Origin: a virus
Lineage: Duplodnaviria; Heunggongvirae; Uroviricota; Caudoviricetes
Length of the DNA stretch: 17,320 nt
IMG/VR virus record: IMGVR_UViG_2563366829_000011
Location: 1 to 17,320 of that record
Direction: 5' to 3' (one strand)
Shown in pieces: positions 1-17,320 of the stretch; position 1 is the first letter of the stretch, and every line of letters begins with the position of its first letter. The notes below the pieces were generated by a model. It saw only the letters and a list, made by a program, of their open reading frames with translations. It was not told where the DNA came from and made no database searches. The position numbers and the translations under genes were made by a program.

Positions 1-147
1 ATCATCAGTGTGACGACTGCGGCGGCCATCCATCCAGTCATCGGTTCGTCTGAGAATGACGTGCAACTGCGCACGCGACACCCGGAGACAACGGCTGACT
101 AAGCTTCCCCCCCATCCCCGGGCAATAAGGGCGCGTGCGTTATCCAC
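1..147 (-). CDS. insD: IS2 transposase OrfB (InsD-like), N-terminal part only; continues beyond window start
   Basis: Minus-strand frame from GTG (reverse complement of 145-147) reads [49 protein letters not shown], matching the recalled IS2 OrfB N-terminus. It overlaps the orfA 3' end in the -1 frame. Confidence 0.6.
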
Positions 148-470
148 TTTTTTGCCCGTCCATATTCAACGGCTTCTTTGAGGAGTTCATTTTCCATCGT
201 TTTCTTGCCGAGCAGGCGCTGGAGTTCTTTAATCTGCTTCATGGCGGCAGCAAGTTCAGAGGCAGGAACAACCTGTTCTCCGGCGGCGACAGCAGTAAGA
301 CTTCCTTCCTGGTATTGCTTACGCCAGAGAAATAACTGGCTGGCTGCTACACCATGTTGCCGGGCAACGAGGGAGACCGTCATCCCTGGTTCAAAGCTCT
401 GCTGAACAATTGCGATCTTTTCCTGTGTGGTACGCCGTCTGCGTTTCTCCGGTCCTAAGACATCAATCAT
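99..470 (-). CDS. insC: IS2 OrfA (InsC-like HTH protein), 123 aa
   Basis: Protein [54 protein letters not shown]... recognised as IS2 OrfA. The ORF track extends upstream into the inverted repeat; the ATG at 468-470 (minus) matches the canonical start. Confidence 0.85.
147..153 (-). other. Putative programmed -1 ribosomal frameshift slippery site (AAAAAAG on minus strand) joining IS2 orfA to orfB
   Basis: Minus-strand sequence GGCAAAAAAGTGGATA lies at the orfA/orfB overlap. IS3-family elements use A6G slippery heptamers (established knowledge). Confidence 0.5.
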
Positions 471-561
471 CTGCTCTCCAATGACTAGTCTAAAAACTAG
501 TATTAAGACTATCACTTAAATAAGTGATATTGGTTGTCTGGTGATTCAGGGGGCCAGTCTA

Positions 562-1010
562 CTTGGATTATCCAGGTAAAGCGTTTCTCCATGCAGCAGT
601 TCATTCCGGTAGTTTAAGATATCGCTATAACGAATATGTGATATCGGGGTACTTTCACAAATTATTATTCTGAGTGTTTTTAATTGTGATTTCGTTTTCT
701 TCATTGTGTTTGTTGTTAACTCTGTCTCTTTAATTTTTGTCCAGATATCACAAAGCTCTCCGAACGTTTTTATGACTCTCGTTGTCACCATTTTTGCCCC
801 AGTGCTGGACTGGGGAAAACGTCTTAAATACTCAAATTCACCGGAGTTTATTTCATGAACTATCAGCGCTCTTAAATTTCCGGCCTTTTTAATATTACTG
901 TTTGTAATCTCCCAGCCTTTTAATGTTTCCCGACATCGTTTTCCTCGAAACATGAACCAGATGCGAATGTATCTACCTCTAATCTCGACACCTGTTGGTA
1001 ATTTAGACAT
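562..1010 (-). pseudogene. intR: Rac-type prophage integrase, N-terminal 149 codons only (arm-binding domain); 3' part removed by the IS2 insertion
   Basis: Translation MSKLPTGVEIRGRYIRIWFMFRGKRCRETLKGWEITNSNIKKAGNLRALIVHEINSGEFEYLRRFPQSS... matches the IntR N-terminus from memory. The frame runs into the IS2 end, adding the IS-derived residues SRLAP before a stop. Confidence 0.85.
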
Positions 1011-2568: not shown

Positions 2569-5161
2569 TTGCATATTCCTTAGCCCAGCGGGGCAGTGAT
2601 AATGTCTTAATAGCTGGCCATTCATCGGTATTCAGGCAGTCAGACAGGGTTCGCAGATTGCGGTGATATTCCTGTTGACCTGCCAGTTTTGCTTCTTCGC
2701 CCATCATGAAAATTTCAACCGGATAACGTCCGCATTCAATAGTTGTGCTGGCAACCAGAAAAACGAAAGTTGGCTGCACTCCAAACAGTGCTTCATAACC
2801 GTCACTGTAGAATGCATCCTGAACGTGATAGCGGTAGTCGTAATAAGCGGTTTTGAATCGTTGAATATCCGCCGTAGTTTTCACGTCCATGATCCAGTGA
2901 AATTCAGGGATAATTTTGTCCGGACGGCACCGACACAAAATTCCTGTTTCAGGATCTTCCCAGTAAATTGATGATTCAGCGTGTCCGGCGCTTTCAACAA
3001 GCCATTGCCCCAGCGGCAAAGCCATAACGCTTTGATACATGAGTTCAATTTTCCGGCCTTCTTCCGCAGTGATAACCGTTTTTCCTGTGCTTGCGCATTC
3101 CATCAGAAACGCTTTCTCTTCTTCTTTTCCGGCGTTTGTACGGCGGTTAAATTCAGGTGCTACGATAAAGCGGTTACTGAATTCTTCCGGTTCAAGTACC
3201 CGGCAGTGGAAAGCAGTTCCTAAATCGAGCGTTTTTGTCTTTGTGGTGTCCACGGGGGCATTTTTACGCCACAAATATAGTGCCGGAGTATCAGCAATGT
3301 CATCGAGCTGAGACTTACTGATACCGGGACCCGCGTGGTAATTCTCATTCGAAATTCCGTAATAAATACCTGGCTCTATGTCTTCTACGATTACGGGATC
3401 TGCGACTTCGCCAGTTTCATCACTGCAATCGTGATGCGGATCGCTGCCAGCATTCTCATTGTGCGGATGTTCAGCGCCTTCCATTTCCTCCGGATCATTT
3501 TCCTTAGCTTCAACCTGACTCTCTTCATCGAATGTTTCCTGGTATGTTGCGTCGCCCATCACCGCACCACAGTCAGGGCAGTTATCCCCGCCAGTCTGGC
3601 CGCAGGCATTGCAGGCTATTTCCGGTTCCTGTTGCACTACTGGCTCAGGTTGATTCATATCTGGGCTGGTTTTTTCCGTTTCTGGCTGGTTCTGGTACAC
3701 ACAATCGCGAGTCTGGATCCCCTTTACCCATTTCGGATCGTTCGGGTCGCTAATTCCGTCAACAAATTCACCACGTGATGCAGCAAGCAATTTATCGGCA
3801 TCGACAGGATTTTTTGATGGAATGTTTTTCCGGGCTTCATGGAGTTCTGCCCGCAGTTCCTGATATTTCGCATCAACAGAATTTACCTGTGACTGAGCAT
3901 CCAGCGGCTGCGTGTCCTGATGATGTTCAGTTGCGTCCGGTTCCATTGTTTCAGCCTCTCCCTGTTCAACTGCCGTTGTTCCAGATGGTTGCGGTTTTTC
4001 TTCATCATCCTGTTTTCCTTCTTCTGTTACTCGCTGCGGCATCGGGGCAGAGGAGCGACCGCAGGCAATATCCACGATTTCCGGATCAGGGTTGGCATGA
4101 TCGGTTTCAGTCAGTACTTTGTTCAGATATTCAGTGACGTGCGCGGGGATGACCTCGATCCCAATTGGTGCTTCTTTTACGGACGCAACCACGATGGCGC
4201 GGGAATAATCCAGCCCGCCAGGCATGGTGATGAATTTGTCGCGGAAAACAGAAAAGGGCGGTTTATTTTCAGCGATAATTTCCTCAATGCGTTTAGCGTG
4301 TGCCGGATGAAGGTTATAGATGTCCAGATCCATTGAACGGGCCAGTACGCCAGTGGCTACGTCGCGCGCCAGTGACGTCAGATCGTGTACGAAACCTTCG
4401 CCGCGATCGGTGAGGTTTCCGCCGCCAGCATTAGCACCGGAAGCCGTGCGAGTGATGTGTGAAACACGATTACCCTTCATCCACTCTTTTGTCAGCAGTC
4501 CTCGATCGGTGTAGTCAGCGTTCAGGTATGCTTCGAAAAAAGCAGTTATCAGTCCCAGGTTTGAATTACCAGGATTAGGGAAAACTTTGTCAGTGTCACG
4601 AACCAGTTTGTGGAGTTCGCGAATTTCCAGCGGGTCGAGCAGGCTGGTTTTGTGGGAAACAGCCAGGGCAGTAACAGCCGGTAGTTCTTCAGCCCGAGCA
4701 ATGTGTAATGCCTGGAGTCCGTCGCGTGAAACGTGCGTTACCGGTTTTTCGCTGCCGTGTTGAGCAAGCCAACGAATGGGCAGTTCCTGGCCAGAAATTG
4801 GGAGTAGCATATTCTCCTCAATCTCAGTCATGTCTTCGCCGTTGACGTTGGTATTGCCTTGATAATGAGCGTTGTCTGGTGCTGCTCCCGGTTTTAGTTC
4901 CCATGTCATGGAGTCTTTGCTGAGTTGATAGCGTTCACTCCAGGTAAAATCGATCTCACCTTCAGCGGGCAGGTCATTAACGACAGGAAAATTCGTGGCA
5001 ACAGCTTTAAAATAGCTGCTCAGTTTTTTACCTGACTTAACGATCAGGTAGTCCAGAGTGGCACAGGTCGATTCAAAATCGTTGCTTGCCCACAGGACGA
5101 CGTCAGGTTCACCGGATGATTTTTTCGCTTTCCGTAACAGGAAGAGTGGTTTTGTGCTCAT
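2561..5161 (-). CDS. recE: RecE exonuclease VIII, 866 aa
   Basis: 866 aa [49 protein letters not shown]... recognised as full-length RecE. SD GAGG lies upstream. Confidence 0.95.
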
Positions 5162-5232
5162 TGTTTTTTAACCTCAACTCAGATTAAAATTCGTTTTGTT
5201 CAGTGAATGATCTTGCCGGATACACACTGTTC

Positions 5233-5263
5233 ATAGCCTGCGCCATACGCAGGCTATTTCTTT
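5233..5263 (+). other. Hairpin (10 bp stem ATAGCCTGCG/CGCAGGCTAT, loop CCATA) followed by a T-rich tract on the plus strand, in the racC-recE spacer
   Basis: Seen directly at 5233-5257, followed by TTCTTTC. In the plus orientation it looks like an intrinsic terminator; on the minus (gene) strand it is a stable stem immediately after the racC stop with no U tract. Confidence 0.4.
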
Positions 5264-5538
5264 CAGATTTCACCTTTTAATTTCATTGCAATTAGAGTTG
5301 CCAGAAATTCGGCTTTTTTTTCTGCGGGCAGATTCTTTCCGATATGCACCAGGCACATTTTTTTGACACCTTCATCAAGTGTTTTTACGTTGCCTGATGG
5401 ACCATCGATATCAACCACAGTGAATGGGGTTTCTTTATTTTCTGTTTTAATTACGTAGCCAATGCGCTTTCCTTCCAGATTCACCTCGTGAACAATGTCA
5501 TCGGTAGTTACAACAGTGGCTTCATAATTGGTAATCAT
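5263..5538 (-). CDS. racC: RacC, 91 aa
   Basis: MITNYEATVVTTDDIVHEVNLEGKRIGYVIKTENKETPFTVVDIDGPSGNVKTLDEGVKKMCLVHIGKNLPAEKKAEFLATLIAMKLKGEI. SD AGGAG precedes the ATG at 5536-5538 (minus). Confidence 0.85.
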   Translation of the reverse strand: MITNYEATVVTTDDIVHEVNLEGKRIGYVIKTENKETPFTVVDIDGPSGNVKTLDEGVKKMCLVHIGKNLPAEKKAEFLATLIAMKLKGEI

Positions 5539-5612
5539 GTTTTTCTCCTTAATTAAGGTTGAGCGAATACCTGCCATTTCTGGCATAAATTCAGTTTCGA
5601 ATAGTCAATTAA

Positions 5613-5783
5613 TTAAAGTTCATGTGCCATCTGGTCTTTTTCGGCACAAGCTTCACTGCAATATTTTCTCGGTTCGTCTTTTGATAAAATCCCGTGCATG
5701 AAGTGAAGCATTCTTTCAATAGCTTTGCTTTCTTCAACGTCTTTTTTGCAAAGGTGGTAAGCACATTTTGTTTTCTTAGTCAT
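5613..5783 (-). CDS. ydaE: YdaE-like small Cys-rich (zinc-binding type) protein, 56 aa
   Basis: Below the ORF-track size cutoff. Minus-strand translation [62 protein letters not shown] upstream; the start overlaps the kilR stop (TGATG). Confidence 0.8.
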   Translation of the reverse strand: MTKKTKCAYHLCKKDVEESKAIERMLHFMHGILSKDEPRKYCSEACAEKDQMAHEL

Positions 5784-6004
5784 CACCATGACTCCGCCTT
5801 TACAGGTAAACCATCACAACCGAGGAAGACTTTAATCATGCGGTCAGTAATGCATGTTTTTGTGGTCAGGTTACGAATATATAGTTTTCGCTTTTTAATA
5901 TTGTTTGCCGAGGCAATATATGTCCGGCCTTCATGAAGAACATAATCGCCAGGAGTCACACACTGACGTGGTATTTCATCAGTTCCGAAGTGATGTGCAA
6001 TCAT
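5783..6004 (-). CDS. kilR: KilR, Rac cell-division inhibitor, 73 aa
   Basis: [79 protein letters not shown] lies 6 nt upstream of the ATG at 6002-6004 (minus); the ORF-track start at 6016 has no SD. Confidence 0.85.
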
Positions 6005-6176
6005 AATTATCTCCATTTTTACAAATGAACTTTGTTGATGCGGTGTCTGGTGCCTCCAGGTGACTGCAACCAGTTAACAATTACAGTCGGCTTTCCCACC
6101 CAAACCAATAAGGACTAACATGACTTTTAACTGTGCCACGTGCGCTTAGCCGCATTCACCGCATCACAAAATTCAC

Positions 6177-6227
6177 TTTAAAAAGGGCGGACATCAGCCG
6201 AACTTCAAGAAAAAAACTGATGCCGCC
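6177..6227 (-). terminator. Candidate intrinsic terminator for leftward transcription upstream of kilR: 11 bp stem with one bulge, 19 nt loop, then U5 on the minus strand
   Basis: Arms GGCGGACATCAG (6186-6197) and CTGATGCCGCC (6217-6227). Minus-strand RNA after the stem reads CUUUUUAAAG. The long loop weakens the call. Confidence 0.3.
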
Positions 6228-6383
6228 AGGACTACACACAGCAATGTCGTTATTTACAACCGGAGGCGCACTCCCACCATTTAAATTTAACAGACAAGAC
6301 CGACTCTTTATGGATATCGGAAATGCGCCTTCGTGTTGTGCCCGGTTTTATTTCACCACCTCCGGGCTTCGGTGGTCTCGGCT

Positions 6384-6430
6384 ATACCCCTACAGCGAGA
6401 GCTTGTGTTAACATTTCAATACCCTTACAG
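6384..6430 (+). promoter_or_regulatory. Direct repeat ATACCC(C/T)TACAG x2 (6384-6395 and 6419-6430) immediately upstream of sieB; possible promoter or operator
   Basis: Seen directly, 11 of 12 identical, 35 bp apart, ending 16 bp before the sieB ATG. A TTGTGT -35-like hexamer lies between the copies. Confidence 0.3.
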
Positions 6431-6445
6431 TTGAGAGTTATTGAT

Positions 6446-6934
6446 ATGTTGGATGTATTTACTCCATTGTTGAAACTTTTTGCTAACGAGCCACTCGAAA
6501 GACTTATGTATACGATTATCATTTTTGGTCTCACTCTCTGGCTGATACCGAAAGAGTTTGCTGTCGCATTCAATGCTTATACTGAAATACCCTGGCTCTT
6601 TCAGATTATCGTTTTTGCCTTTTCTTTCGTGGTCGCTATTTCCTTCTCAAGATTGCGAGCACATATTCAAAAGCATTATTCATTGCTACCAGAGCAACGA
6701 GTATTGCTTCGTTTATCTGAGAAAGAAATCGCTGTATTTAAAGATTTCCTTAAAACAGGAAATCTTATTATCACTTCTCCTTGCCGTAACCCGGTTATGA
6801 AAAAATTAGAACGGAAGGGCATCATTCAACATCAGAGTGATAGCGCAAACTGTTCTTATTATCTCGTCACCGAAAAATACTCCCACTTTATGAAGTTATT
6901 CTGGAACAGCAGGAGCAGGCGTTTTAATCGTTAG
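6446..6934 (+). CDS. sieB: SieB superinfection-exclusion protein, 162 aa, predicted membrane protein
   Basis: MLDVFTPLLKLFANEPLERLMYTIIIFGLTLWLIPKEFAVAFNAYTEIPWLFQIIVFAFSFVVAISFS... with hydrophobic segments. SD GAGAG lies upstream of the ATG at 6446. The ORF-track start at 6323 was rejected. Confidence 0.85.
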   Translation: MLDVFTPLLKLFANEPLERLMYTIIIFGLTLWLIPKEFAVAFNAYTEIPWLFQIIVFAFSFVVAISFSRLRAHIQKHYSLLPEQRVLLRLSEKEIAVFKDFLKTGNLIITSPCRNPVMKKLERKGIIQHQSDSANCSYYLVTEKYSHFMKLFWNSRSRRFNR

Positions 6935-7086
6935 CTTACTGTGTGCTTCTCCAACCATCGTCGTGCGCCAGCTTCGGTTTTAAACGTTTTGCTTTTGGTA
7001 TACGTCATGGCAGTGAACGTTCCATCCTGGTTGGGGAACACGCCGCACACCAGGGATTCGTTATTGCCGAGGTCGATTTTTTGCAT
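6931..7086 (-). CDS. ydaF: YdaF-like small protein, 51 aa
   Basis: Below the ORF-track cutoff. Minus-strand translation MQKIDLGNNESLVCGVFPNQDGTFTAMTYTKSKTFKTEAGARRWLEKHTVS. SD GAGGTG upstream. Confidence 0.75.
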   Translation of the reverse strand: MQKIDLGNNESLVCGVFPNQDGTFTAMTYTKSKTFKTEAGARRWLEKHTVS

Positions 7087-7096
7087 TTTTCGCACC

Positions 7097-7231
7097 TCAC
7101 ATCTTGTTGTTGCGGATAGAGGCTTCTGCCTGCCAGAGATCCCAGTCGTTGCTGCGTAGAGCCTGTACAGCCTGGCTGTAAGTGATATCGCAACAATCCA
7201 TCAAATACTGAACTACTTCGTAATGCACCAT
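7097..7231 (-). CDS. ydaG: YdaG-like small protein, 44 aa
   Basis: MVHYEVVQYLMDCCDITYSQAVQALRSNDWDLWQAEASIRNNKM. SD GGGGAGAG lies upstream of the ATG at 7229-7231 (minus). Confidence 0.75.
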   Translation of the reverse strand: MVHYEVVQYLMDCCDITYSQAVQALRSNDWDLWQAEASIRNNKM

Positions 7232-7404
7232 CTTATCTCTCCCCTTAACGCCGGGTGGCGGAACTGAAACCTGCTGCACTGCAAAATCTGAACCCTGCCG
7301 TCATGTTCATACGCCTCGGGCTGGCTACTTAACCCCTGACCACTGCCTGGTAACTCGAAGTATTGCCCTGCGTTCTGTGGGGCGGGGTGGGTTGGTAGGT
7401 ATAT

Positions 7405-7446
7405 GATGTACTTTGTGTTCATTGATGTAAAGTACTTTAAGTACAT
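7405..7446. promoter_or_regulatory. Operator-like cluster downstream of racR and upstream of ydaG: ATGTACT at 7406, AAGTACT at 7430 (24 bp later), and a 13 bp palindrome GTACTTTAAGTAC at 7432-7444
   Basis: Seen directly. The same ATGTACT 7-mer pair with 24 bp spacing recurs in the racR-ydaS spacer. The position corresponds to the pL/oL region of a lambdoid immunity region (inference). Confidence 0.4.
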
Positions 7447-7521
7447 TTTGTGTGTAAAAAAATGAGATGGGATAAAGTGAAGCACAAACCCGGAGGGGGG
7501 AGCTACCGGATTTATGCTGGT

Positions 7522-7941
7522 TTAAGAGGCTTTTTGTTTTTTCTTTCGTGCTAACTCTTCGTAAATTGCATTGTACTTCTGTTTTTTCTCCTCAAGAGTT
7601 TTTAAAAGTTCATCTGTCTCACTGTCAGGGAGCTCGTCCAGAAGGTCAATGATGATTTTTTGTCTTGGATTTAACTCCTGATAGAAACGTACCTGTCCAC
7701 TTTCTTCTGTATCCTCTCCCAAAAGATAGGTTGGTGTTGTTCCAATGAGTGTTGCTAATTCCCTTAATTTCTCTCGGCGAGGAATTGTTTCGCCATTAAA
7801 CCATTTGCTAACCGCTTTTGGTGTTAATTTCATTCGACGGGCAATTTCTGCCTGCCTTCCATGTTGTTCATAACCAGCGTTTTCACAGGCTAGCGCAAGC
7901 CTACTGGCGAACTCTTTACGCGCTTTATCTTCATGAACCAT
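7522..7941 (-). CDS. racR: RacR prophage repressor (HTH, cI-like), 139 aa in this frame
   Basis: MVHEDKARKEFASRLALACENAGYEQHGRQAEIARRMKLTPKAVSKWFNGETIPRREKLRELATLIGTTPTYLLGEDTEE... An HTH lies in the N-terminal half. Divergent from ydaS. Confidence 0.9.
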   Translation of the reverse strand: MVHEDKARKEFASRLALACENAGYEQHGRQAEIARRMKLTPKAVSKWFNGETIPRREKLRELATLIGTTPTYLLGEDTEESGQVRFYQELNPRQKIIIDLLDELPDSETDELLKTLEEKKQKYNAIYEELARKKKQKAS

Positions 7942-8020
7942 AAGTTCAATGATATTCGCTCTTGAATGTACTGTCAGTTCTGTTATACCATGTACTCAAA
8001 GTTCACATTGTGAGGGTGAT
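7942..8020. promoter_or_regulatory. racR-ydaS divergent promoter/operator region with two ATGTACT motifs (7966-7972, 7990-7996) 24 bp apart
   Basis: Predicted minus-strand promoter CTGACA (7972-7977), 17 bp spacer, TATCAT (7949-7954), ending 7 nt before the racR ATG. Predicted plus-strand promoter TTGAAT (7962-7967), 16 bp spacer, TATACC (7984-7989) toward ydaS. SD GAGGG precedes ydaS. Hexamers identified by eye. Confidence 0.5.
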
Positions 8021-8275
8021 ATGAACCAGAAAACACTTGAAGATGTAATCAAAACTGTTCGCGTTTCTGTTGTGGCCGACGTTTGTGGTGTCAGCCAAAG
8101 AGCAATCTACAAATGGATGGATAACGGAAAATTGCCTCGCACAGAATATACCGGCGAAACAAATTACGCTGAAAAAATCGCTCATGCATCAAACGGATTA
8201 TTTTCTGCCGATGTAATTTTAACTATTGGCAGAAATAAAACTACTACGAAAAAGCTGATGGGAGTTGATTCATGA
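8021..8275 (+). CDS. ydaS: YdaS (Cro/HTH-like small protein), 84 aa from the SD-supported start
   Basis: MNQKTLEDVIKTVRVSVVADVCGVSQRAIYKWMDNGKLPRTEYTGETNYAEKIAHASNGLFSADVILTIGRNKTTTKKLMGVDS. SD GAGGG lies 7 nt upstream of the ATG at 8021. The upstream in-frame ATG at 7949 lacks an SD and lies in the operator region. Confidence 0.8.
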   Translation: MNQKTLEDVIKTVRVSVVADVCGVSQRAIYKWMDNGKLPRTEYTGETNYAEKIAHASNGLFSADVILTIGRNKTTTKKLMGVDS

Positions 8276-8694
8276 AAATCAAGCATGAGCACATCGAGTC
8301 AGTGTTGTTAGCCCTGGCAGCCGAAAAAGGGCAGGCATGGGTAGCCAATGCCATTACTGAAGAATATCTGCGCCAGGGGGGCGGCGAATTGCCCCTGGTA
8401 CCAGGCAAGGACTGGAATAATCAGCAGAACATCTATCACCGTTGGTTAAAAGGTGAAACGGAAGCGCAAAGGGAAAAAATTCAGAAACTGATCCCTGCAA
8501 TTCTGGCAATCCTTCCGCGCGAGCTGCGTCACCGACTCTGCATCTTCGATACCCTGGAACGCCGTGCATTACTGGCGGCGCAGGAAGCGTTAAGTACGGC
8601 AATTGATGCGCATGATGATGCAGTCCAGGCCGTTTACCGGAAAGCGCATTTCAGCGGCGGCGGGTCTTCCGACGATTCTGTCATTGTTCATTAA
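8272..8694 (+). CDS. ydaT: YdaT, 140 aa
   Basis: MKIKHEHIESVLLALAAEKGQAWVANAITEEYLRQGGGELPLVPGKDWNNQQNIYHRWLKGETEAQREKIQKLIPAILAILPRELRHRLCIFDTLERR... The start overlaps the ydaS stop (ATGA). Confidence 0.85.
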   Translation: MKIKHEHIESVLLALAAEKGQAWVANAITEEYLRQGGGELPLVPGKDWNNQQNIYHRWLKGETEAQREKIQKLIPAILAILPRELRHRLCIFDTLERRALLAAQEALSTAIDAHDDAVQAVYRKAHFSGGGSSDDSVIVH

Positions 8695-8706
8695 GCAAAA
8701 GTTTCC

Positions 8707-8917
8707 ATGCTGTTTGTGCTTATTCTAAGCAACCGGGCAGCATCATACGGGGCAATTATGGCCGCATTACCATACATGCAACTGTACATAGCTGATTATC
8801 TGGCTGACACCATGCATTTGTCAGCAGAGGAGCATGGTGCGTATTTGTTGCTGATGTTCAATTACTGGCAAACAGGAAAGCCAATACCTAAAAACAGGCT
8901 GGCAAAAATTGCCCGTC
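8707..8917 (+). pseudogene. ydaU: YdaU-like (DUF1376-type) gene, 5' fragment only, interrupted by IS629 at 8918
   Basis: ...[52 protein letters not shown] then continues into IS629-derived codons. The true start may be the ATG at 8758. Confidence 0.65.
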
Positions 8918-8971
8918 TGAACCGCCCCGGGAATCCTGGAGACTAAACTTCCTGAGAAAGAGGTAAACAGG

Positions 8972-9298
8972 ATGACTAAAAATACTCGTTTTTCCCCCGA
9001 AGTCCGTCAACGGGCAGTCCGTATGGTTCTGGAAAGTCAGAGCGAATATGACTCACAATGGGCGACAATTTGTTCCATTGCTCCAAAGATTGGCTGTACG
9101 CCGGAGACTCTGCGTGTCTGGGTTCGCCAGCATGAGCGGGATACCGGGGGCGGTGATGGAGGGCTCACCACCGCTGAACGTCAGCGTCTGAAAGAGCTGG
9201 AACGTGAAAATCGTGAACTGCGCCGCAGTAACGATATCCTTCGCCAGGCTTCCGCTTATTTTGCGAAGGCGGAGTTCGACCGCCTCTGGAAAAAATGA
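8972..9298 (+). CDS. IS629 transposase OrfA (HTH), 108 aa
   Basis: [61 protein letters not shown]... recognised as IS629/IS3-family OrfA. Confidence 0.9.
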
Positions 9299-10185
9299 TG
9301 CCACTGCTGGATAAGCTGCGTGAGCAGTACGGGGTCGGACCGCTATGCAGCGAACTGCATATTGCCCCGTCAACGTATTACCACTGTCAGCAACAGCGAC
9401 ATCATCCGGATAAACGCAGTGCCCGTGCGCAGCTCGATGACTGGCTGAAGAAAGAGATACAGCGCGTATACGATGAAAATCACAAGGTATACGGTGTGCG
9501 TAAAGTCTGGCGTCAGTTGTTACGGGAAGGTATCAGAGTGGCCAGATGCACTGTGGCACGTCTCATGGCGGTTATGGGACTTGCCGGTGTTCTCCGGGGT
9601 AAAAAGGTCCGTACGACCATCAGCCGGAAAGCCGTTGCCGCAGGCGACCGCGTAAACCGTCAGTTCGTGGCAGAACGACCTGACCAGCTGTGGGTGGCTG
9701 ATTTTACTTACGTCAGCACATGGCGGGGCTTCGTCTATGTGGCGTTCATCATTGATGTGTTTGCCGGATACATCGTGGGGTGGCGGGTCTCATCGTCCAT
9801 GGAAACGACATTCGTGCTGGATGCACTGGAGCAGGCGTTATGGGCCCGTCGACCGTCCGGCACGGTCCATCACAGTGATAAAGGTTCTCAGTATGTATCG
9901 CTGGCCTACACACAGCGGCTTAAGGAAGCCGGATTACTGGCATCAACAGGAAGTACAGGCGACTCGTATGACAACGCGATGGCGGAGAGCATCAATGGTC
10001 TTTACAAAGCGGAGGTAATACACCGTAAGAGCTGGAAAAACCGTGCAGAAGTGGAACTGGCCACACTCACGTGGGTGGACTGGTATAACAATCGACGATT
10101 GCTGGAAAGGCTGGGCCATACTCCTCCGGCAGAAGCAGAAAAAGCTTATTATGCTTCCATCGGAAACGATGATCTGGCAGCCTGA
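9295..10185 (+). CDS. IS629 transposase OrfB (DDE/RNase H-fold catalytic domain), 296 aa
   Basis: [37 protein letters not shown]...[34 protein letters not shown]...[10 protein letters not shown]...[15 protein letters not shown], a typical IS3-family integrase core. Confidence 0.9.
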
Positions 10186-10227
10186 GTTCACAGATAAAAC
10201 ACTCTCCAGGAAACCCGGGGCGGTTCA

Positions 10228-12072
10228 ATTGCGACTTATAACCAGATTAAGGCGCTACAGGATGAAGGGAACCAGCAGGAGGCCGCCCGCATTGCGACAG
10301 AAGCATACTCATCCTCAATGATCCAGCGCACCAACCAGATTAAAGAAAATCTTGGTTATCTTGAGACTGCATGGAAAGCTGTCGCAGACTCCGCAAAATG
10401 GGCATGGGATTCCATGCTGGATATTGGCCGTGAGGCCTCCCTTGATCAAAAAATCTCAGATGTTCTCCGTCAAATTGATGAAATAGAAAAAAATACCCGC
10501 CCCGGAGTTTTCGGGTTAGGTGGCATTGGAGATGGCGGAGCTCAAAATAAAAGGCTGGCACGATTAAAGCAGCAATTGGGCGTACTTCAAGCAGAAAAAA
10601 TTGCTCAGGACGTACTAAATTCATCAATAAACGATTACAACAAGCGACAACAGGAAGGAATTGAACTCAGACAGAGAGCAGATGCCTTTTCAAAACAATA
10701 TCAGACCCGGGAGCAGCAGAGAGCTAGTGAACTTGCAAAACTGGAAAAACTAAAGAGTCAGTATTCAAAGGAAGAATATAATAATCTTATCGCTCAAATA
10801 AATGAGCGTTATAAAGATCCAAAGCAACCAAAGGCGAAAGGTTATTCGGATGATGCTGCCCAACGAATGATTGATCATCTGAATCAACAGAATGCGTTAC
10901 TAAGTTCACAAACTGAATTAACCGTTAAATTAAGTTCCTCTGAACAGGAACTGGTTAAGTGGCGTCAGCAGATTGCCGACCTGGAGTCACGACCGTCATC
11001 GAAATTAACCAAGGATCAGAAATCGCTTCTCTTACACCGGGAAGAAATAACCGCGTTGATGGAGAAAAATGTTGCGATTGAAAAAAATAACAGGCTAATC
11101 AAGGAATCCGCCGAAATAGCTGCATGGCGTGATTCATTGCAGGCTTCGATTGATAATCGTCAACAGGGGTATGATATTCAGATTGCTGGTTATGGGGTTG
11201 GCGATAAAAATCAGCAACGCCAGCAGGAATTACTGCGGATTGAACGTGAATATAACAATCAGCGTCTGCAACTTGAACGTGACTATGCAGATAAATCCCG
11301 TGGGATGTCAAATCATGTTTTTCAGGAGAAAATGCAGGCTCTGAATGATGCTCTGGAACGAGAAAAAGAAATTGTCAGACAGAAAAACGAGCAGCTCGAT
11401 ATTCAGGCAGGAGACTGGGTTAGTGGTGCCTCCCAGGGATTCAATAACTGGCTGGATGACACTAAGGATATCAGTGAGCAGATAAAATCAACCACGACTC
11501 AGATGTTTGATGGAATGACCGATGCGCTGGGTGATTTTGTCACGACAGGCAAAGCAAATTTTCGTTCTTTCGCTACTTCCGTGATTTCGGATCTTAGTCG
11601 AATAGCATTAAAGGCTTCAATTACTGGGATTTTCGACAGCATTAGTAACAGTTCTTCTGGGGGGATTTTAGGAACTATCGGGAGTGCTATTAGTAAATTT
11701 ATTCCGAATGCAAAGGGCGGTGTTTATGAGTCTCCGTCATTGAACACGTATTCGAACGGTATTTATGATTCCCCGCAATTTTTTGCTTTTGCAAGAGGGG
11801 CTGGTGTTTTTGGTGAGGCTGGTCCGGAAGCCATTATGCCATTAACACGAACTTCCGATGGTTCTCTTGGTGTCAGAGCTGTTAATAGTAAAAGTGGTAA
11901 TGGAGGCGGAGATATTACCTATGCCCCTGTATACCAAATCACTATTCAAAATGACGGCCAGAATGGAGAGATTGGCCCTCAGGCAATAAAAGCACTTATG
12001 GGGATGGTTGATCAGCGGGTGCAGGGCAATCTGTTAAATATGCGACGTGATGGGGGAATGTTAAGTGGCTAA
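10228..12072 (+). pseudogene. Lambda H-like tail tape-measure protein, 5'-truncated by IS629; C-terminal about 614 codons retained
   Basis: The frame is open from inside the IS629 end through 12072. Product is Q/E/K-rich and coiled-coil-like with a Gly-rich C-terminus (FAFARGAGVFGEAGPEAIMPLTR...). Identified by position immediately upstream of M-L-K-I-J homologues. Confidence 0.8.
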
Positions 12073-12403
12073 TACGGAAGAATTTCACTGGTTACCAGAG
12101 GATGGAATGAAAACAGAAAATAAACCATCGATAAAAACTGTAAGATTTGGCGATGGTTATGAGCAACGAAGTCCAAATGGACTTAATCATTCTCTGCGCG
12201 TTTTCACCTGTGATTTCAAAGTTGAGGCGAATGAACGTGATTCATTTGAAAAATTTTTAGCCCGGCATGAAGGCTATAAATCTTTTTTTTGGCGCCCGCC
12301 GGGTATTAACAGAAAAATCAGAGTGGTGTGTCGAACGTGGTCAGCGACAGAACATATCACCTATACCGATTTTTCGTGTCAGTTTGACGAAGTGGTGATC
12401 TGA
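12065..12403 (+). CDS. Lambda M-like minor tail protein, 112 aa, GTG start
   Basis: ...KTVRFGDGYEQRSPNGLNHSLRVFTCDFKVEANERDSFEKFLARHEGYKSFFWRPPG... resembles lambda gpM (recalled motif VRFGDGY). SD GGGGGAA upstream; overlaps the tape-measure stop. Confidence 0.85.
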   Translation: MANTEEFHWLPEDGMKTENKPSIKTVRFGDGYEQRSPNGLNHSLRVFTCDFKVEANERDSFEKFLARHEGYKSFFWRPPGINRKIRVVCRTWSATEHITYTDFSCQFDEVVI

Positions 12404-13101
12404 TGCAGGACATACAACAGGAAACGCTGAATGAATGCATTCGTGCGGAGCAGTCGGCCAGCGTGGTGCTCTGGGAAATCGACCTGACCGAGGTAGGCGG
12501 GGATCGCTACTTTTTCTGTAATGAGCAGAACGAAAAAGGTGAGTCTGTCACCTGGCAGAGTCGGCAGTATCAGGCCTATCCCATTCAGGGGAGTGGATTT
12601 GAGATGAACGGCAAGGGCAGTGCTGCCCGTCCGACACTGGCGGTCTCTAACCTGCACGGCATGATCACCGGGATGGCGGAAGATCTGCAGAGTCTGGTCG
12701 GCGGAACGGTGGTCCGGCGTAAGGTTTACGCCCGCTTTCTGGATGCGGTGAACTTCGTCAACGGAAACAGCGAAGCCGATCCGGAGCAGGAGGTGATCAG
12801 CCGCTGGCGCATCGAGCAGTGCAGCGAACTGAGCGCGGTCAGTGCCTCTTTTGTACTGTCCACGCCGACTGAAACGGATGGCGCTGTTTTTCCGGGACGT
12901 ATCATGCTGGCCAACACCTGCACCTGGACCTATCGCGGCGATGAGTGCGGTTATAGCGGTCCGGCGGTCGCGGATGAATATGACCAGCCGACGTCCGATA
13001 TCACGAAGGATAAATGCAGCAAATGCCTGAGTGGCTGTAAGTTTCGCAATAATGTCGGCAACTTTGGCAGCTTCCTTTCCATTAACAAACTTTCGCAGTA
13101 A
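12403..13101 (+). CDS. Lambda L-like minor tail protein, 232 aa
   Basis: MQDIQQETLNECIRAEQSASVVLWEIDLTEVGGDRYFFCNEQNEKGESVTWQ... ...CSKCLSGCKFRNNVGNFGSFLSINKLSQ closely matches lambda gpL as recalled. The start overlaps the M stop (TGATG). Confidence 0.9.
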   Translation: MQDIQQETLNECIRAEQSASVVLWEIDLTEVGGDRYFFCNEQNEKGESVTWQSRQYQAYPIQGSGFEMNGKGSAARPTLAVSNLHGMITGMAEDLQSLVGGTVVRRKVYARFLDAVNFVNGNSEADPEQEVISRWRIEQCSELSAVSASFVLSTPTETDGAVFPGRIMLANTCTWTYRGDECGYSGPAVADEYDQPTSDITKDKCSKCLSGCKFRNNVGNFGSFLSINKLSQ

Positions 13102-13106
13102 ATCCC

Positions 13107-13850
13107 ATGACAGAGACAGAATCAGCGATTCTGGCGCACGCCCGGCGATGTGCGCCAGCGGAGTCGTGCGGCTTCGTGGTGAGAACGCCGGAGGAGGAAA
13201 GATATTTTCCCTGCGTGAATATCTCCGGTGAGCCGGAGGAGTATTTCCGGATGTCGCCGGAGGACTGGCTGAGTGCAGAAATGCAGGGAGAGATTGTGGC
13301 GCTGGTCCACAGCCACCCCGGTGGTCTGCCCTGGCTGAGTGAGGCCGACCGGCGGCTGCAGGTACAGAGTGATTTGCCGTGGTGGCTGGTCTGCCGGGGG
13401 GCGATTCATAAATTCCGCTGTGTGCCGCATCTCACCGGGCGGCGCTTTGAGCACGGGGTAACGGACTGTTACACGCTGTTCCGGGACGCTTACCATCTGG
13501 CGGGAATTGAGATGCCGGATTTTCATCGCGGGGATGACTGGTGGCGTAACGGTCAGAATCTCTATCTGGATAATCTGGAGGCCACAGGGCTGTATCAGGT
13601 GCCGTTGTCAGCGGCGCAGCCGGGCGATGTGCTGCTGTGCTGTTTTGGTTCATCGGTGCCGAATCATGCCGCCATTTACTGTGGTGACAGCGAGCTGCTG
13701 CACCATATTCCTGAACAACTGAGCAAACGAGAGAGGTACACCGACAAATGGCAGCGACGCACACACTCCCTCTGGCGTCACCGGGCATGGCACGCATCTG
13801 CCTTTACGGGGATTTACAACGATTTGGCCGCCGCATCGACCTTCGAGTGA
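13107..13850 (+). CDS. Lambda K-like tail assembly protein with JAMM/MPN and NlpC/P60-like motifs, 247 aa from the first ATG
   Basis: JAMM signature HSHPGGLPWLSEAD (H-x-H-x7-S-x2-D) and a downstream Cys/His region (GVTDCYTLF ... NHAAIY) are visible. The 3' end overlaps gene I by 103 nt, as in lambda. An alternative start at 13251 would give the 199 aa lambda-size product. Confidence 0.85.
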   Translation: MTETESAILAHARRCAPAESCGFVVRTPEEERYFPCVNISGEPEEYFRMSPEDWLSAEMQGEIVALVHSHPGGLPWLSEADRRLQVQSDLPWWLVCRGAIHKFRCVPHLTGRRFEHGVTDCYTLFRDAYHLAGIEMPDFHRGDDWWRNGQNLYLDNLEATGLYQVPLSAAQPGDVLLCCFGSSVPNHAAIYCGDSELLHHIPEQLSKRERYTDKWQRRTHSLWRHRAWHASAFTGIYNDLAAASTFE

Positions 13851-14389
13851 AAACGGGGTCCGAAGCCATCCGGGCGCTGGCCATGCAGATCCCGGCATTT
13901 CGTCAGAAACTGAGCGACGGCTGGTACCAGGTACGCATTGCCGGGCGTGATGCAGGTGAAACCGAATTGTCTGCCCGTCTTAATGAGCCGCTGGAAAATG
14001 GTGCCGTGATCCATATCGTGCCGCGTCTGGCAGGAGCCAAAAGTGGCGGTGTGTTTCAGGCTGTGCTGGGGGCGGCTGTTATGGCGGTTGCTATATGGAT
14101 GCCGGGGGTAGGAATTATGGCGAGTAATCTGCTGTTTTCTCTCGGTGCCAGTATGACGCTTGGCGGTGTTGCACAGATGCTGGCCCCTAAACCCAAAACC
14201 CCCCGCACACAGACAACGGATAACGGCAAACAGAACACCTATTTTTCTTCACTGGATAACATGGTTGCCCAGGGCAATGTTCTGCCGGTTCTGTACGGTG
14301 AAATGCGCGTGGGGTCACGCGTGGTTTCTCAGGAGATCAGCACGGCAGACGAAGGGGATGGTGGTCAGGTTGTGGTGATTGGTCGCTGA
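13748..14389 (+). CDS. Lambda I-like tail assembly protein, 213 aa
   Basis: MAATHTLPLASPGMARICLYGDLQRFGRRIDLRVKTGSEAIRALAMQIPAFRQKLSDGWYQVRIAGRD... ...YGEMRVGSRVVSQEISTADEGDGGQVVVIGR matches lambda gpI as recalled. Confidence 0.85.
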   Translation: MAATHTLPLASPGMARICLYGDLQRFGRRIDLRVKTGSEAIRALAMQIPAFRQKLSDGWYQVRIAGRDAGETELSARLNEPLENGAVIHIVPRLAGAKSGGVFQAVLGAAVMAVAIWMPGVGIMASNLLFSLGASMTLGGVAQMLAPKPKTPRTQTTDNGKQNTYFSSLDNMVAQGNVLPVLYGEMRVGSRVVSQEISTADEGDGGQVVVIGR

Positions 14390-14407
14390 TGCAAAATGTT
14401 TTATGTG

Positions 14408-14430
14408 AAACCGCCTCCGGGCGGTTTTAT
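14408..14430 (+). terminator. GC-rich hairpin (AAACCGCC-TCCG-GGCGGTTT) with a short T tract, between genes I and J
   Basis: Seen directly at 14408-14427, followed by TAT. SD GGAG for J follows at 14438-14441. May be a weak terminator, attenuator or mRNA stability element. Confidence 0.45.
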
Positions 14431-14449
14431 CGTTTATGGAGCATGACGA

Positions 14450-17113
14450 ATGGGTAAAGGCAGCAGTAAGGGGCATACCCCGCGCGAAGCGAAGGACAAC
14501 CTGAAGTCCACGCAGCTGCTGAGTGTGATCGATGCCATCAGCGAAGGGCCGGTTGAAGGTCCGGTGGATGGATTAAAAAGCGTGCTGCTGAACAGTACGC
14601 CGGTGCTGGACAGTGAGGGGAATACCAATATATCCGGCGTCACGGTGGTGTTCCGGGCCGGTGAGCAGGAGCAGACACCGCCGGAGGGATTTGAATCCTC
14701 CGGCTCCGAGACGGTGCTGGGTACGGAAGTGAAGTACGACACGCCGATTACCCGGACCATCACGTCGGCAAACATCGACCGTCTGCGCTTTACCTTCGGT
14801 GTGCAGGCACTGGTGGAAACCACCTCAAAGGGGGACCGGAATCCGTCGGAAGTCCGCCTGCTGGTTCAGATACAGCGTAATGGTGGCTGGGTGACGGAAA
14901 AAGACATCACCATTAAAGGCAAAACCACCTCACAGTATCTGGCATCGGTGGTGGTGGGTGACCTGCCGCCGCGTCCGTTCAATATCCGGATGCGCAGGAT
15001 GACGCCGGACAGCACCACAGACCAGCTGCAGAACAAAACGCTCTGGTCGTCATACACCGAAATCATCGATGTGAAACAGTGCTACCCGAACACGGCACTG
15101 GTCGGCGTACAGGTGGATTCGGAGCAGTTCGGCAGCCAGCAGGTGAGCCGTAATTATCATCTGCGCGGGCGTATTCTGCAGGTGCCGTCGAACTATAACC
15201 CGCAGACTCGGCAATACAGCGGTATCTGGGACGGAACGTTTAAGCCAGCATACAGCAATAACATGGCCTGGTGTCTGTGGGATATGCTGACCCATCCACG
15301 CTACGGCATGGGGAAACGTCTTGGTGCGGCGGATGTGGACAAATGGGCGCTGTATGTCATCGGCCAGTACTGCGACCAGTCAGTGCCGGACGGCTTTGGC
15401 GGCACGGAGCCGCGCATCACCTGTAATGCGTACCTGACCACACAGCGCAAGGCGTGGGATGTGCTCAGTGATTTTTGCTCGGCGATGCGCTGTATGCCGG
15501 TATGGAACGGGCAGACGCTGACGTTCGTGCAGGACCGACCGTCAGATAAGGTGTGGACCTATAACCGCAGTAATGTGGTGATGCCGGATGATGGCGCGCC
15601 GTTCCGCTACAGCTTCAGCGCCCTGAAGGACCGCCATAATGCCGTTGAGGTGAACTGGATTGACCCGGATAACGGCTGGGAGACGGCGACAGAGCTTGTT
15701 GAAGATACGCAGGCCATTGCCCGTTACGGTCGTAACGTCACGAAGATGGATGCCTTTGGCTGTACCAGCCGGGGGCAGGCACACCGCGCCGGGCTGTGGC
15801 TGATTAAAACGGAGCTGCTGGAAACGCAGACCGTGGACTTCAGCGTGGGCGCAGAAGGGCTTCGCCATGTACCGGGCGATGTCATTGAAATCTGTGATGA
15901 TGACTATGCGGGTATCAGCATCGGCGGGCGCGTGCTGGCGGTGAACAGCCAGACGCGGACGCTGACGCTCGACCGTGAAATCACGCTGCCATCCTCCGGC
16001 ATCACGCTGATAAGCCTGGTTGACGGACAGGGGAATCCGGTCAGCGTGGAGGTTCAGTCCGTCACCGACGGCGTGAAGGTAAAAGTGAGCCGTGTTCCTG
16101 GCGGTGTTGCTGAATACAGCGTATGGGGGCTGAAGCTGCCGACGCTGCGCCAGCGACTGTTCCGCTGCGTGAGTATCCGTGAGAACGACGACGGCACGTA
16201 TGCCATCACCGCCGTGCAGCATGTGCCGGAGAAAGAGGCCATCGTGGATAACGGGGCGCACTTTGACGGCGAACAGAGTGGCACGGTGAATGGTGTCACG
16301 CCGCCAGCGGTGCAGCACCTGACCGCAGAAGTCACTGCAGACAGCGGGGAATATCAGGTGCTGGCGCGATGGGACACGCCGAAGGTGGTGAAGGGCGTGA
16401 GCTTCCTGCTTCGCCTGACCGTGGCAGCGGATGACGGCAGTGAGCGGCTGGTCAGCACGGCCCGGACGACGGAAACCACATACCGCTTCACGCAACTGGC
16501 GCTGGGAAACTACAGGCTGACAGTCCGGGCGGCAAATGCCTGGGGGCAGCAGGGCGATCCGGCATCGGTATCGTTCCGTATTGCCGCACCGGCAGCGCCG
16601 TCGCGGATTGAGCTGACGCCGGGCTATTTTCAGATAACCGCCACGCCGTATCTTGCCGTTTATGATCCGACGGTACAGTTTGAGTTCTGGTTCTCGGAAA
16701 AGCGGATTGCGGATATCAGGCAGGTTGAAACCACAGCCCGCTATCTTGGCACGGCGCTGTACTGGATAGCTGCCAGTATCAATATCAAGCCGGGCCATGA
16801 TTATTATTTTTACATCCGCAGTGTGAACACCGTTGGCAAATCGGCATTCGTGGAGGCTGTTGGCCAGCCGAGTGATGATGCATCCGGCTATCTGGATTTT
16901 TTCAAAGGAGAGATAGGGAAAACCCATCTGGCTCAGGAGTTGTGGACGCAGATTGATAACGGTCAGCTTGCGCCTGACCTGGCGGAAATCAGAACGTCCA
17001 TCACGGATGTCAGTAATGAAATCACGCAGACCGTCAATAAGAAACTGGAAGACCAGAGTGCAGCGATCCAGCAGATACAGAAGGTTCAGGTTGATACAAA
17101 TAATAACCTGAAC
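14450..17113 (+). pseudogene. Lambda J-like central tail fibre/host-specificity protein, N-terminal about 888 codons; C-terminal receptor-binding part removed by IS2
   Basis: [58 protein letters not shown]... is typical of gpJ. The frame runs into the IS2 end at 17114, giving the IS-derived tail SRLAP then stop. Confidence 0.9.
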
Positions 17114-17320
17114 AGTAGACTGGCCCCCTGAATCACCAGACAACCAATATCACTTATTTAAGTGATAGTCTTAATACTAGTTTTTAGACTAGTCATTGGA
17201 GAGCAGATGATTGATGTCTTAGGACCGGAGAAACGCAGACGGCGTACCACACAGGAAAAGATCGCAATTGTTCAGCAGAGCTTTGAACCAGGGATGACGG
17301 TCTCCCTCGTTGCCCGGCAA
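17114..17320 (+). mobile_element. IS2 insertion sequence, right copy, partial (runs off window end); inverted relative to the left copy
   Basis: TAGACTGGCCCCCTGAATCACCAGACAACCAATATCACTTATTTAAGTGATAGTC... is identical to the reverse complement of 355-561. Confidence 0.9.
17206..17320 (+). CDS. insC: IS2 OrfA (InsC-like), 5' part only; continues beyond window end
   Basis: ATG at 17206; [38 protein letters not shown]... Confidence 0.8.

Follow-up and report, generated by a model that had tools for sequence, protein, structure and literature searches.

The 17,320-nucleotide stretch of DNA analysed here (the window) very probably contains the genetic switch of a Rac-type lambdoid prophage, in which the immunity cassette at 7398-8265 belongs to the HK022/933W family and not to that of K-12 RacR, and in which dyad-symmetric sites around the repressor gene would serve as the operators of this repressor. 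The window is a Rac-type prophage, and its nearest complete genome is TUM14771 (99.9%), where the gene order is ttcA, intR, xisR, rcbA, ralR, recT, recE, racC and ydaE, followed by kilR, sieB, ydaF, a ydaG-like gene, two HTH proteins, ydaT, ydaU and ydaV. BLASTN homology to the K-12 Rac prophage is 98.9% up to position 7397 and returns at 97.4% from position 8266, and therefore the segment in between is an exchanged immunity cassette, with the left motif cluster as its first element and the start of ydaT as its right edge. The cassette and its genes are located as follows.

7398-8265, no strand: exchangeable immunity cassette (OL/PL, repressor, OR, cro-like gene), replacing the K-12 racR-ydaS cassette
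7522-7941, minus strand: repressor gene, 139 aa, Pfam HTH_3, with an HK022/933W-type N-terminal domain and a DicA-like helical C-terminal domain
8021-8275, plus strand: cro-like gene, 84 aa, with RBS GAGGG; the PGAP start in TUM14771 is identical
8265-8282, no strand: YdaT box TTGATTcatgaaAATCAA, an exact match to TTGATT-N6-AATCAA, over the ydaT ATG (8272) and at the right edge of the cassette
8272-8694, plus strand: ydaT (cII analogue), K-12-like, Pfam YdaT_toxin, with 97.4% DNA identity to K-12 from 8266 on

The cassette is carried by 1047 of 5426 complete E. coli genomes and also by the record of phage Tritos, whose "CI repressor" is 100% identical to the repressor of the window; a literature search found no mention of phage Tritos in papers. 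In current annotation the cassette appears only as "helix-turn-helix domain-containing protein".

The anatomy of the operator clusters, like their homology, conservation and statistics, was read directly from the sequences. ATGTACT is present on the plus strand at 7406, 7966 and 7990 and AAGTACT at 7430-7436, the positions given in an earlier note on this DNA, and the 24-bp spacing that the note reported for the paired copies is exact in both clusters (7400-7450, TATATGATGTACTTTGTGTTCATTGATGTAAAGTACTTTAAGTACATTTTG; 7960-8006, TCTTGAATGTACTGTCAGTTCTGTTATACCATGTACTCAAAGTTCAC). The 13-bp palindrome that it described in the left cluster is also there, as GTACTTTAAGTAC at 7432-7444 (GTACTT-T-AAGTAC, 6-nt arms around a central T); the right arm of this palindrome forms a fourth copy of ATGTACT, on the minus strand at 7440-7446, which is absent as such from the list in the note. 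An independent repeat finder recovered a 15-nt family, ATGTACTnnnnGTTC, at 7406, 7966 and 7990, and a 23-nt pair at 7401 and 7425, spaced by 24 bp. ATGTACT does belong to the candidate operators, but makes up just half of a site: the full dyad is 15-17 bp long and reads (A)T-GWAC-N5-GTWC-A(T), with the 7-mer as its consensus half-site. Five such dyads are found around the repressor gene, two to its left and three to its right, each a symmetric 15-17 bp site whose GWAC(T/C) halves flank a central base.

7406-7422, no strand: OL1 dyad ATGTACTttgTGTTCAT, pattern match, PWM score 14.8 bits, in the spacer and -10 of the predicted PL
7430-7446, no strand: OL2 dyad AAGTACTttaAGTACAT, perfect GTACT-N3-AGTAC core, PWM score 19.5 bits, abutting the predicted PL -35
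7933-7949, no strand: OR3 dyad ATGAACCataAGTTCAA, pattern match, PWM score 21.8 bits, the highest in the window
7966-7982, no strand: OR2 dyad ATGTACTgtcAGTTCTG, pattern match, PWM score 16.8 bits
7990-8006, no strand: OR1 dyad ATGTACTcaaAGTTCAC, pattern match, PWM score 18.4 bits, just downstream of the PR -10

The spacing is 24 bp between OL1 and OL2, 24 bp between OR1 and OR2, and 33 bp between OR2 and OR3. Reading the right-hand cluster as oR-like is upheld, except that it consists of three sites and not two, the third (7933-7949) having been missed in the earlier note. OR3 covers the repressor ATG (7941-7939) and the predicted leaderless start.

The repeats could in principle be chance AT-rich words or promoter hexamers that serve no dedicated regulator, and two observations are compatible with this: promoter-like hexamers overlap the dyads, and the 7-mer itself, counted without the dyad, is weak evidence, its enrichment being mild (4 occurrences in the window versus 1.27 expected, with 4 or more in 7 of 200 shuffles). 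The comparison with background frequency that had been proposed as a check separates the bare 7-mer from the full dyad, which is non-random: the GWAC-N5-GTWC pattern GWACNNNNNGTWC has 6 matches in the window versus 0.64 expected, a count never reached in 200 shuffles, and five of the six flank the repressor gene (core starts 7408, 7432, 7935, 7968 and 7992). The symmetry of the sites, their 24/33-bp register, and the retention of the cores where the spacers and flanks of relatives differ also speak against chance, as does the fact that these elements are annotated operators in the 933W-type Stx2 phage 24B and that the operators of 933W, which is of the same immunity type, have been measured biochemically (PMC3317979). 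An origin as chance words or promoter hexamers is thus very improbable. An effect of GTAC as a restriction site was considered separately and rejected; the tetranucleotide is rarer than expected across the window (45 versus 67), and this leaves the local clustering unexplained.

The operators of HK022 were reportedly mapped experimentally by Carlson & Little in 1993. Their sequences (OR3 is TTGAACTTATGGTTCA(T/A)) are nearly those of the window, to the point that the two sets are almost interchangeable, and both systems have an OR spacing of 24 + 33 bp, an OL pair at 24 bp and a TTTACA -35 between the OL sites. HK022 has in addition a far-right dyad between cro and cII (position 1165 of locus L008), of which no counterpart was found in the window. 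The GenBank annotation of 24B gives OR1 as CGTACTTTCAGTACG, OR2 as about TGAACTGAAAGTTTT and OR3 as CGTACTCATGGTTCA, all of them GWAC-N5-GTWC dyads, which share with the sites of the window their core and their relation to pR, pRM and the cI ATG, with a spacing of 24 + 32 bp. OR1 of the window lies in the position of the annotated 24B OR1, OR3 is the positional equivalent of the annotated 24B OR3 over the cI ATG, and the OL2 palindrome GTACTttaAGTAC has a core identical to that of 933W OR1. The 933W/24B switch shares with the window an OR3 placed across the ATG of a leaderless cI and an OL pair spaced by 24 bp, and differs in its flanks (TC/TT versus AT) and in the distance between OR2 and OR3 (32 versus 33 bp). 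In 933W, biochemical measurements by Koudelka's group defined five natural sites, each 15 bp long and symmetric, with critical positions G2, A/T3, A4, C5 and T/C6 (PMC3317979), and every half-site in the window fits these mutational rules. Homology to the switches of 933W and HK022, which have been characterised by experiment, strongly supports the reading of the five dyads as probable operators, and it bears out the proposal of the earlier note that the clusters correspond to oL-like and oR-like sites, the repressor taking the cI position of a lambdoid immunity region.

The same arrangement was found in related phages and prophages, for which the core starts are given below as coordinates within each fetched locus (ETEC1730 in the orientation of the window, the others with the repressor on the plus strand).

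Tritos: OR cores 3938, 3962, 3995; OL cores 4498, 4522
E. coli ETEC1730 (86.8% variant): OR cores 2033, 2066, 2090; OL cores 1508, 1532
Klebsiella phage 2b LV-2017: OR cores 1438, 1462, 1495; OL not found
Salmonella phage ABTNLsp11242: OR cores 11, 35, 68; OL cores 843, 867
HK022: OR cores 1432, 1456, 1489; OL cores 2264, 2288
Salmonella phage SI8: OR cores 1439, 1463, 1495; OL not found
24B: OR cores 2439, 2463, 2495; OL cores 3063, 3087 (in L005)
Salmonella prophage L011: OR cores 2938, 2962, 2995; OL cores 4314, 4338

The OR triplet (24 + 33 or 32 bp) was present in 8 of 8 relatives, including two Salmonella prophages, and also in 24B; the OL pair (24 bp) was present in 6 of the 8 and in 24B, and was not found at the Klebsiella 2b LV-2017 or SI8 loci. 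The position of OL1 is common to Tritos, ETEC1730, HK022, Salmonella and 24B. The second Salmonella prophage (L012) has the layout of L011; in both, a HigB/HTH gene pair lies between the repressor and OL, the OL pair is 1.3 kb away, and the repressors are 62-65% identical to that of the window. The window has the layout typical of the family, in which an OL pair spaced by 24 bp accompanies an OR triplet (24 + 32/33 bp) whose third site covers the ATG of the repressor. The half-site logo from 72 half-sites reads (A)T-G-W-A-C-T.

A position weight matrix (PWM) was trained on 26 sites from other phages, leaving out the window and its near-identical relatives. Its five highest scores in the window (21.8, 19.5, 18.4, 16.8 and 14.8 bits) fell on the five dyads, and the next match reached 12.0 bits; in 200 Markov sequences the maximum averaged 10.1 bits and never exceeded 16.7, although the test is not fully independent because the training sites outside 24B were picked with the same pattern. 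Conservation in homologous repressor-flanking regions, another check that had been suggested, is selective for the cores: in the ETEC1730 variant (86.8% identity) none of the 40 core bases was changed, compared with 39 out of the 167 remaining non-coding bases (Fisher's test, one-sided, 8.5e-5), and the differences seen in Tritos and in an O157:H7 strain likewise fall outside the operator cores. OR1 in a close variant is GTGTACT. Across relatives with differing spacers and flanks, the dyad symmetry, the 24/33-bp register and the core bases are kept. One half of OR3 lies inside the coding sequence, in conserved MVH/MVQ codons, so the conservation of this site is confounded by coding constraint.

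The gene between the clusters had been taken for racR, and were this so the dyads would be K-12-type RacR operators to which the published binding data apply. Its location is that of racR, in the slot between ydaG and the cro-like gene of a prophage that is inserted at ttcA and has the Rac gene order; K-12 Rac also shares with the window the prophage backbone, the divergent repressor and cro genes, ydaT and the YdaT box, and K-12 racR is transcribed without a leader and has an operator across its ATG (PMC9638921), as is predicted here. However, K-12 racR and this gene are not orthologous, with 36% identity over only 33 aa, the repressor and Cro sequences are unrelated to K-12 RacR and YdaS, and the entire cassette at 7398-8265 is non-homologous to K-12. 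The motif footprinted for K-12 RacR is also a different one, (T/A)TAGGC-n3-GCCTA(T/A) (PMC9638921, PMC5700373): TAGGC-n3-GCCTA has five dyads in K-12 and no match in the window with up to one mismatch allowed. Operators of the K-12 RacR type are refuted at the level of the sequence compared here, and the probability left to them is minute. The comparison with published RacR binding sites that the earlier note recommended would wrongly seem to refute the operator idea, because the repressor of the window is not the RacR orthologue.

The repressor instead has an N-terminal HTH domain homologous to those of HK022 and 933W CI. Over its first 73 residues it shares 51% identity with 24B/933W CI, residues 4-102 are 47.5% identical to HK022 CI, and its N-terminal domain is ~56% identical to that of HK022 CI. 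The recognition helices of the window repressor (TPKAVSKWFNGE) and HK022 CI (TPKAISKWFNGE) differ by one V/I change, TPKA[V/I]SKWFNGE, whereas that of 933W (SSKGVSKWFNAE) differs from the window's; the form ..K..SKWFN.E is kept, and the family alignment shows no variation at K42, S45, K46, W47, F48 and N49. K42 and K46, which are the same in 24B/933W CI, are base-contacting residues in 933W CI (PMC3317979), and residue 41 is Pro in the window repressor versus the contact residue Ser41 in 933W. Shared immunity with HK022 is plausible on this basis, because the helices differ by a single V/I change and the operator sets are almost interchangeable.

The C-terminal half is of another kind. HK022 CI has a LexA/S24-type C-terminal domain and 933W/24B CI an S24-type domain, unlike the window repressor, in which no Pfam match to PF00717 (LexA/S24) was obtained. 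The protein has the features of the DicA type (the class of ~135-150 aa, an N-terminal HTH_3, a helical C-terminal domain and no protease motif), and its 29% identity to K-12 DicA over 112 aa includes the C-terminal domain. In the AF2 model (pLDDT 80.6) the HTH domain is built of five helices, residues 77-87 form a disordered linker, and two further helices span 92-103 and 106-138. Only a small number of proteins are homologous over the whole length, namely E. coli variants (88-89% identity) and Salmonella proteins (62-65%); the majority of the remaining matches have the N-terminal domain alone in common, fused to an S24 peptidase domain. The repressor is therefore a domain-mosaic relative, and not a full-length member, of the HK022/933W repressors, for which domain mosaicism was noted previously (PMC3202840). 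A PDB sequence search returned the P22 C2 N-terminal domain as the sole match, and Foldseek with the AF2 model returned generic HTH/XRE matches only (E 1e-3 or worse), leaving the C-terminal domain without an identified solved relative.

DicA (Qin) and the Gifsy-type short repressors resemble the window repressor in their size class (135-139 aa) and in having an HTH, a helical C-terminal domain and no autocleavage domain, whereas the operator specificity of DicA is not that of the window, which is HK022-like. The repressor would dimerise through its C-terminal helices, and because the C-terminal domain is a DicA-like helix pair and not LexA/S24, inactivation via RecA-stimulated self-cleavage is unlikely. 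Gifsy repressors are inactivated by antirepressors (PMC3121763), and by analogy with these prophages an antirepressor route of induction is a reasonable guess for the window. The PaaR2/YdaS/YdaT system of CP-933P is similar to the window in being a cryptic lambdoid prophage with a cI-like/cro-like/YdaT layout and both OR and OL sets, and its repressor gene is leaderless (PMC8630535); it differs in its described operators, which are GTTTAGTAA-type 18-bp palindromes, and in having a toxin-antitoxin pair in the repressor operon. Its PaaR2/YdaS operators were set aside as a model since the motif is different (PMC8630535).

A consensus scan placed promoter-like hexamers where the lambdoid paradigm demands them, and the hairpin after the repressor gene was found by RNA folding.

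7403-7431, minus strand: predicted PL, -35 TTTACA (7431-7426), 17-nt spacer, -10 CATCAT (7408-7403), consensus scan 9/12
7481-7518, minus strand: hairpin with a 13-bp stem directly after the repressor stop codon, dG -19.3 kcal/mol, z -5.95
7949-7977, minus strand: predicted PRM, -35 CTGACA (7977-7972, inside OR2), 17-nt spacer, -10 TATCAT (7954-7949), consensus scan 10/12
7962-7989, plus strand: predicted PR region, -35 TTGAAT (7962-7967), -10 TGt-TATACC / TTATAC (7981-7989)

The hexamers of the predicted PL, TTTACA and CAT(C/T)AT, are retained across the aligned family, and its predicted start at ~7396 coincides with the cassette boundary; from there it would be expected to fire leftward into ydaG, ydaF and beyond. 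The predicted PRM matches the annotated pRM and start of 24B in its placement, and would start at or next to the repressor ATG at 7941 to give a leaderless mRNA, as is also annotated for 24B. Leaderless repressor mRNAs have been reported for lambda cI, PaaR2 and K-12 RacR (PMC8630535, PMC9638921). PR was not called by the consensus promoter scan; it was placed by visual inspection and by aligning the region with 24B, whose pR -35/-10 are annotated, and the choice of hexamers is uncertain. OR2 lies in its predicted spacer and OR1 just 3' of its -10, with the PR transcript predicted to start near 7996 on the plus strand. None of 200 shuffles was as stable as the hairpin at 7481-7518, and the Tritos differences are located in its loop; it is a candidate for the end of the PRM transcript, although the terminator scan returned no intrinsic terminators, this hairpin included. 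An Rfam search of 5000-9000 gave no match.

We infer repressor binding at the dyads and, with it, the promoter assignments, the order of occupancy, cooperativity and the mode of induction. The 139-aa repressor would bind the five dyads as a dimer through its helix-turn-helix domain. OR1 and OR2 would cover the start region and spacer of PR, and their occupancy would shut off the cro-like gene and ydaT, while the PRM -35 within OR2 and the position of OR3 over the leaderless start and ATG of the repressor would make autoregulation possible. On the left, with OL2 abutting the PL -35 and OL1 in the spacer and -10, occupancy would silence the early-left operon (ydaG, ydaF, kilR, recET and further genes). 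The Cro-like protein, a 933W-type Cro homologue (47% identity over 68 aa to 24B Cro), would presumably compete for the five dyads; it is unrelated to K-12 YdaS.

Operators are shared by Cro in lambdoid switches. This, and the homology of the cro-like gene to the 933W-type Cro, would also suit a switch in which the dyads chiefly serve the Cro-like protein or YdaT, with the 139-aa protein acting at other sites or having no role; in K-12 the intergenic region is bound by YdaT too (PMC11879457). Such an arrangement is improbable given that the recognition helix matches that of HK022 CI with one V/I change and the operators of the two are alike in sequence and layout. Sharing by Cro, moreover, would complement binding by the repressor and not replace it. 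The motif footprinted for the K-12 and CP-933P YdaT proteins, TTGATT-N6-AATCAA (PMC11879457, PMC9986795), differs from the dyads and is present in the window at 8265-8282 only.

With the five dyads read as operators of the 139-aa repressor, the predicted operator-repressor system is a hitherto uncharacterised addition to the well-known HK022/933W family, with a Rac backbone and a DicA-type C-terminal domain. It provides a predicted operator and promoter map (OL1-2, OR1-3, PL, PR and PRM) for the cassette found in 1047 of 5426 E. coli genomes, and points to mosaic evolution in which an HK022/933W-type DNA-binding domain and its operators were joined to a DicA-type C-terminal domain, with the PL start marking the left limit of the cassette and the YdaT box its right limit. 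Among Rac-type prophages, genes labelled "racR" belong to two or more immunity types that are unrelated, and results for K-12 RacR are therefore not transferable to the cassette of the window. The prophage in the window is itself defective: it has IS insertions, a deletion of the replication-to-head genes and few of the late and accessory genes, so its switch may no longer matter physiologically.

Rac-type prophages carrying the short repressor are often cryptic. It is conceivable, though rather unlikely, that this short, non-cleavable DicA-type repressor gives ~1/5 of complete E. coli genomes an SOS-proof superinfection immunity against phages of HK022 immunity and cross-binds related operators, including those of Stx phages; if it did, a resident repressor could alter the induction of related prophages, Stx phages among them. 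In the 5426 complete E. coli genomes the cassette was found in 1047, a 933W-type OR with the N-terminal domain in 427, and either in 1390; the two occurred together in 84 genomes versus 82 expected under independence, with phylogenetic structure uncontrolled. This count gave no depletion that would indicate incompatibility of the cassette with 933W-type immunity, and the chance-level co-occurrence suggests that the two immunity types are heteroimmune. It argues against strong cross-immunity with 933W and says nothing on HK022-type phages.

In the K-12 Rac prophage, RacR-type dyads and a promoter scoring 11/12 were observed at the position equivalent to OL, forming a candidate OL pair and PL. 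A fall in K-12 RacR derepresses ydaG, ydaF and kilR by 40- to 70-fold (PMC11014345), and a RacR-controlled PL/OL upstream of ydaG, likely undescribed, may be present there.

K-12 Rac carries two RacR-type dyads in the interval from ydaG to the racR stop codon, a place equivalent to that of the OL pair in the window.

K-12 Rac locus (L002) 3627-3668, NC_000913.3 about 1419626-1419667: two RacR-type dyads

The dyads, TAGGTaatGCCTA (L002 3631) and TAGGCtatGCCTA (L002 3656), are spaced 25 bp apart, and both flank or overlap a minus-strand promoter sequence with 11/12 matches (TTGACA-17-TATAGT). Judged from sequence, the dyad pair and this promoter form a candidate K-12 PL/OL, for which no description was found in the accessible RacR literature. 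Such a PL/OL would explain why ydaG, ydaF, kilR, ydaE and racC become derepressed by 40- to 70-fold after a fall in RacR (PMC11014345).

In the two Salmonella prophages, an inserted gene pair separates the homologous repressor gene from its OL pair.

L011 3553-4220 and L012 3588-4255: HigB-toxin and HTH-antitoxin pair

The same place is occupied by rexAB in lambda and by paaA2-parE2 in CP-933P.

Two predicted promoters of the window carry sequence variants. Position 7988 is a private substitution to C (G in TUM14771, an O157:H7 strain, strain 746 and phage Tritos); it falls in the predicted PR -10 region, in the gap from OR2 to OR1. Of 5426 complete genomes, none equals the window throughout 7930-8010, and the closest has one mismatch. 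The variant at position 7405 lies in the predicted PL -10, which is CATCAT in the window, as in TUM14771, whereas the three other relatives compared (the O157:H7 strain, strain 746 and Tritos) have CATTAT, which is nearer to consensus; exact identity to the window across 7400-7450 is limited to 12 genomes.

The Tritos 'Cro' (TRITO_34, L003 3667-3993) is annotated as a long 108-aa ORF, with its window counterpart at 7949-8275. The start of this ORF falls within OR, and its reading frame would cross OR2 and OR1. More likely than this start is the one at 8021, which gives 84 aa, has a GAGGG ribosome-binding site and was also chosen by PGAP.

The remaining features of the window are as follows.

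99..515: transposase gene, abutting the truncated integrase
266-278: GWAC-N5-GTWC match GAACAACCTGTTC, within the transposase ORF
546..1010: truncated integrase
7481-7518, minus strand: strong hairpin (dG -19.3 kcal/mol, z -5.95), immediately 3′ of the repressor stop codon
8265-8282: perfect YdaT box TTGATTcatgaaAATCAA, spanning the ydaT start codon
8972-10185: IS3-family element, truncating ydaU (8707-8946)

The prophage is defective. The IS3-family element directly adjoins a truncated tape-measure gene, followed by tail genes M, L, K, I and J-like (regions 8707-10321 and 10318-17131), so that the prophage lacks its regions for replication, lysis and the head. Besides the five operator dyads, GAACAACCTGTTC is the sole exact GWAC-N5-GTWC match in the window, and one such match is expected by chance (0.64). 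The hairpin differs between the window and Tritos in its loop only, and, since no T-run adjoins it, it is uncertain whether the hairpin acts as a terminator. On its right side, the exchanged immunity cassette has its junction exactly at the YdaT box, the first half of which is ATGATT in K-12 (PMC11879457).
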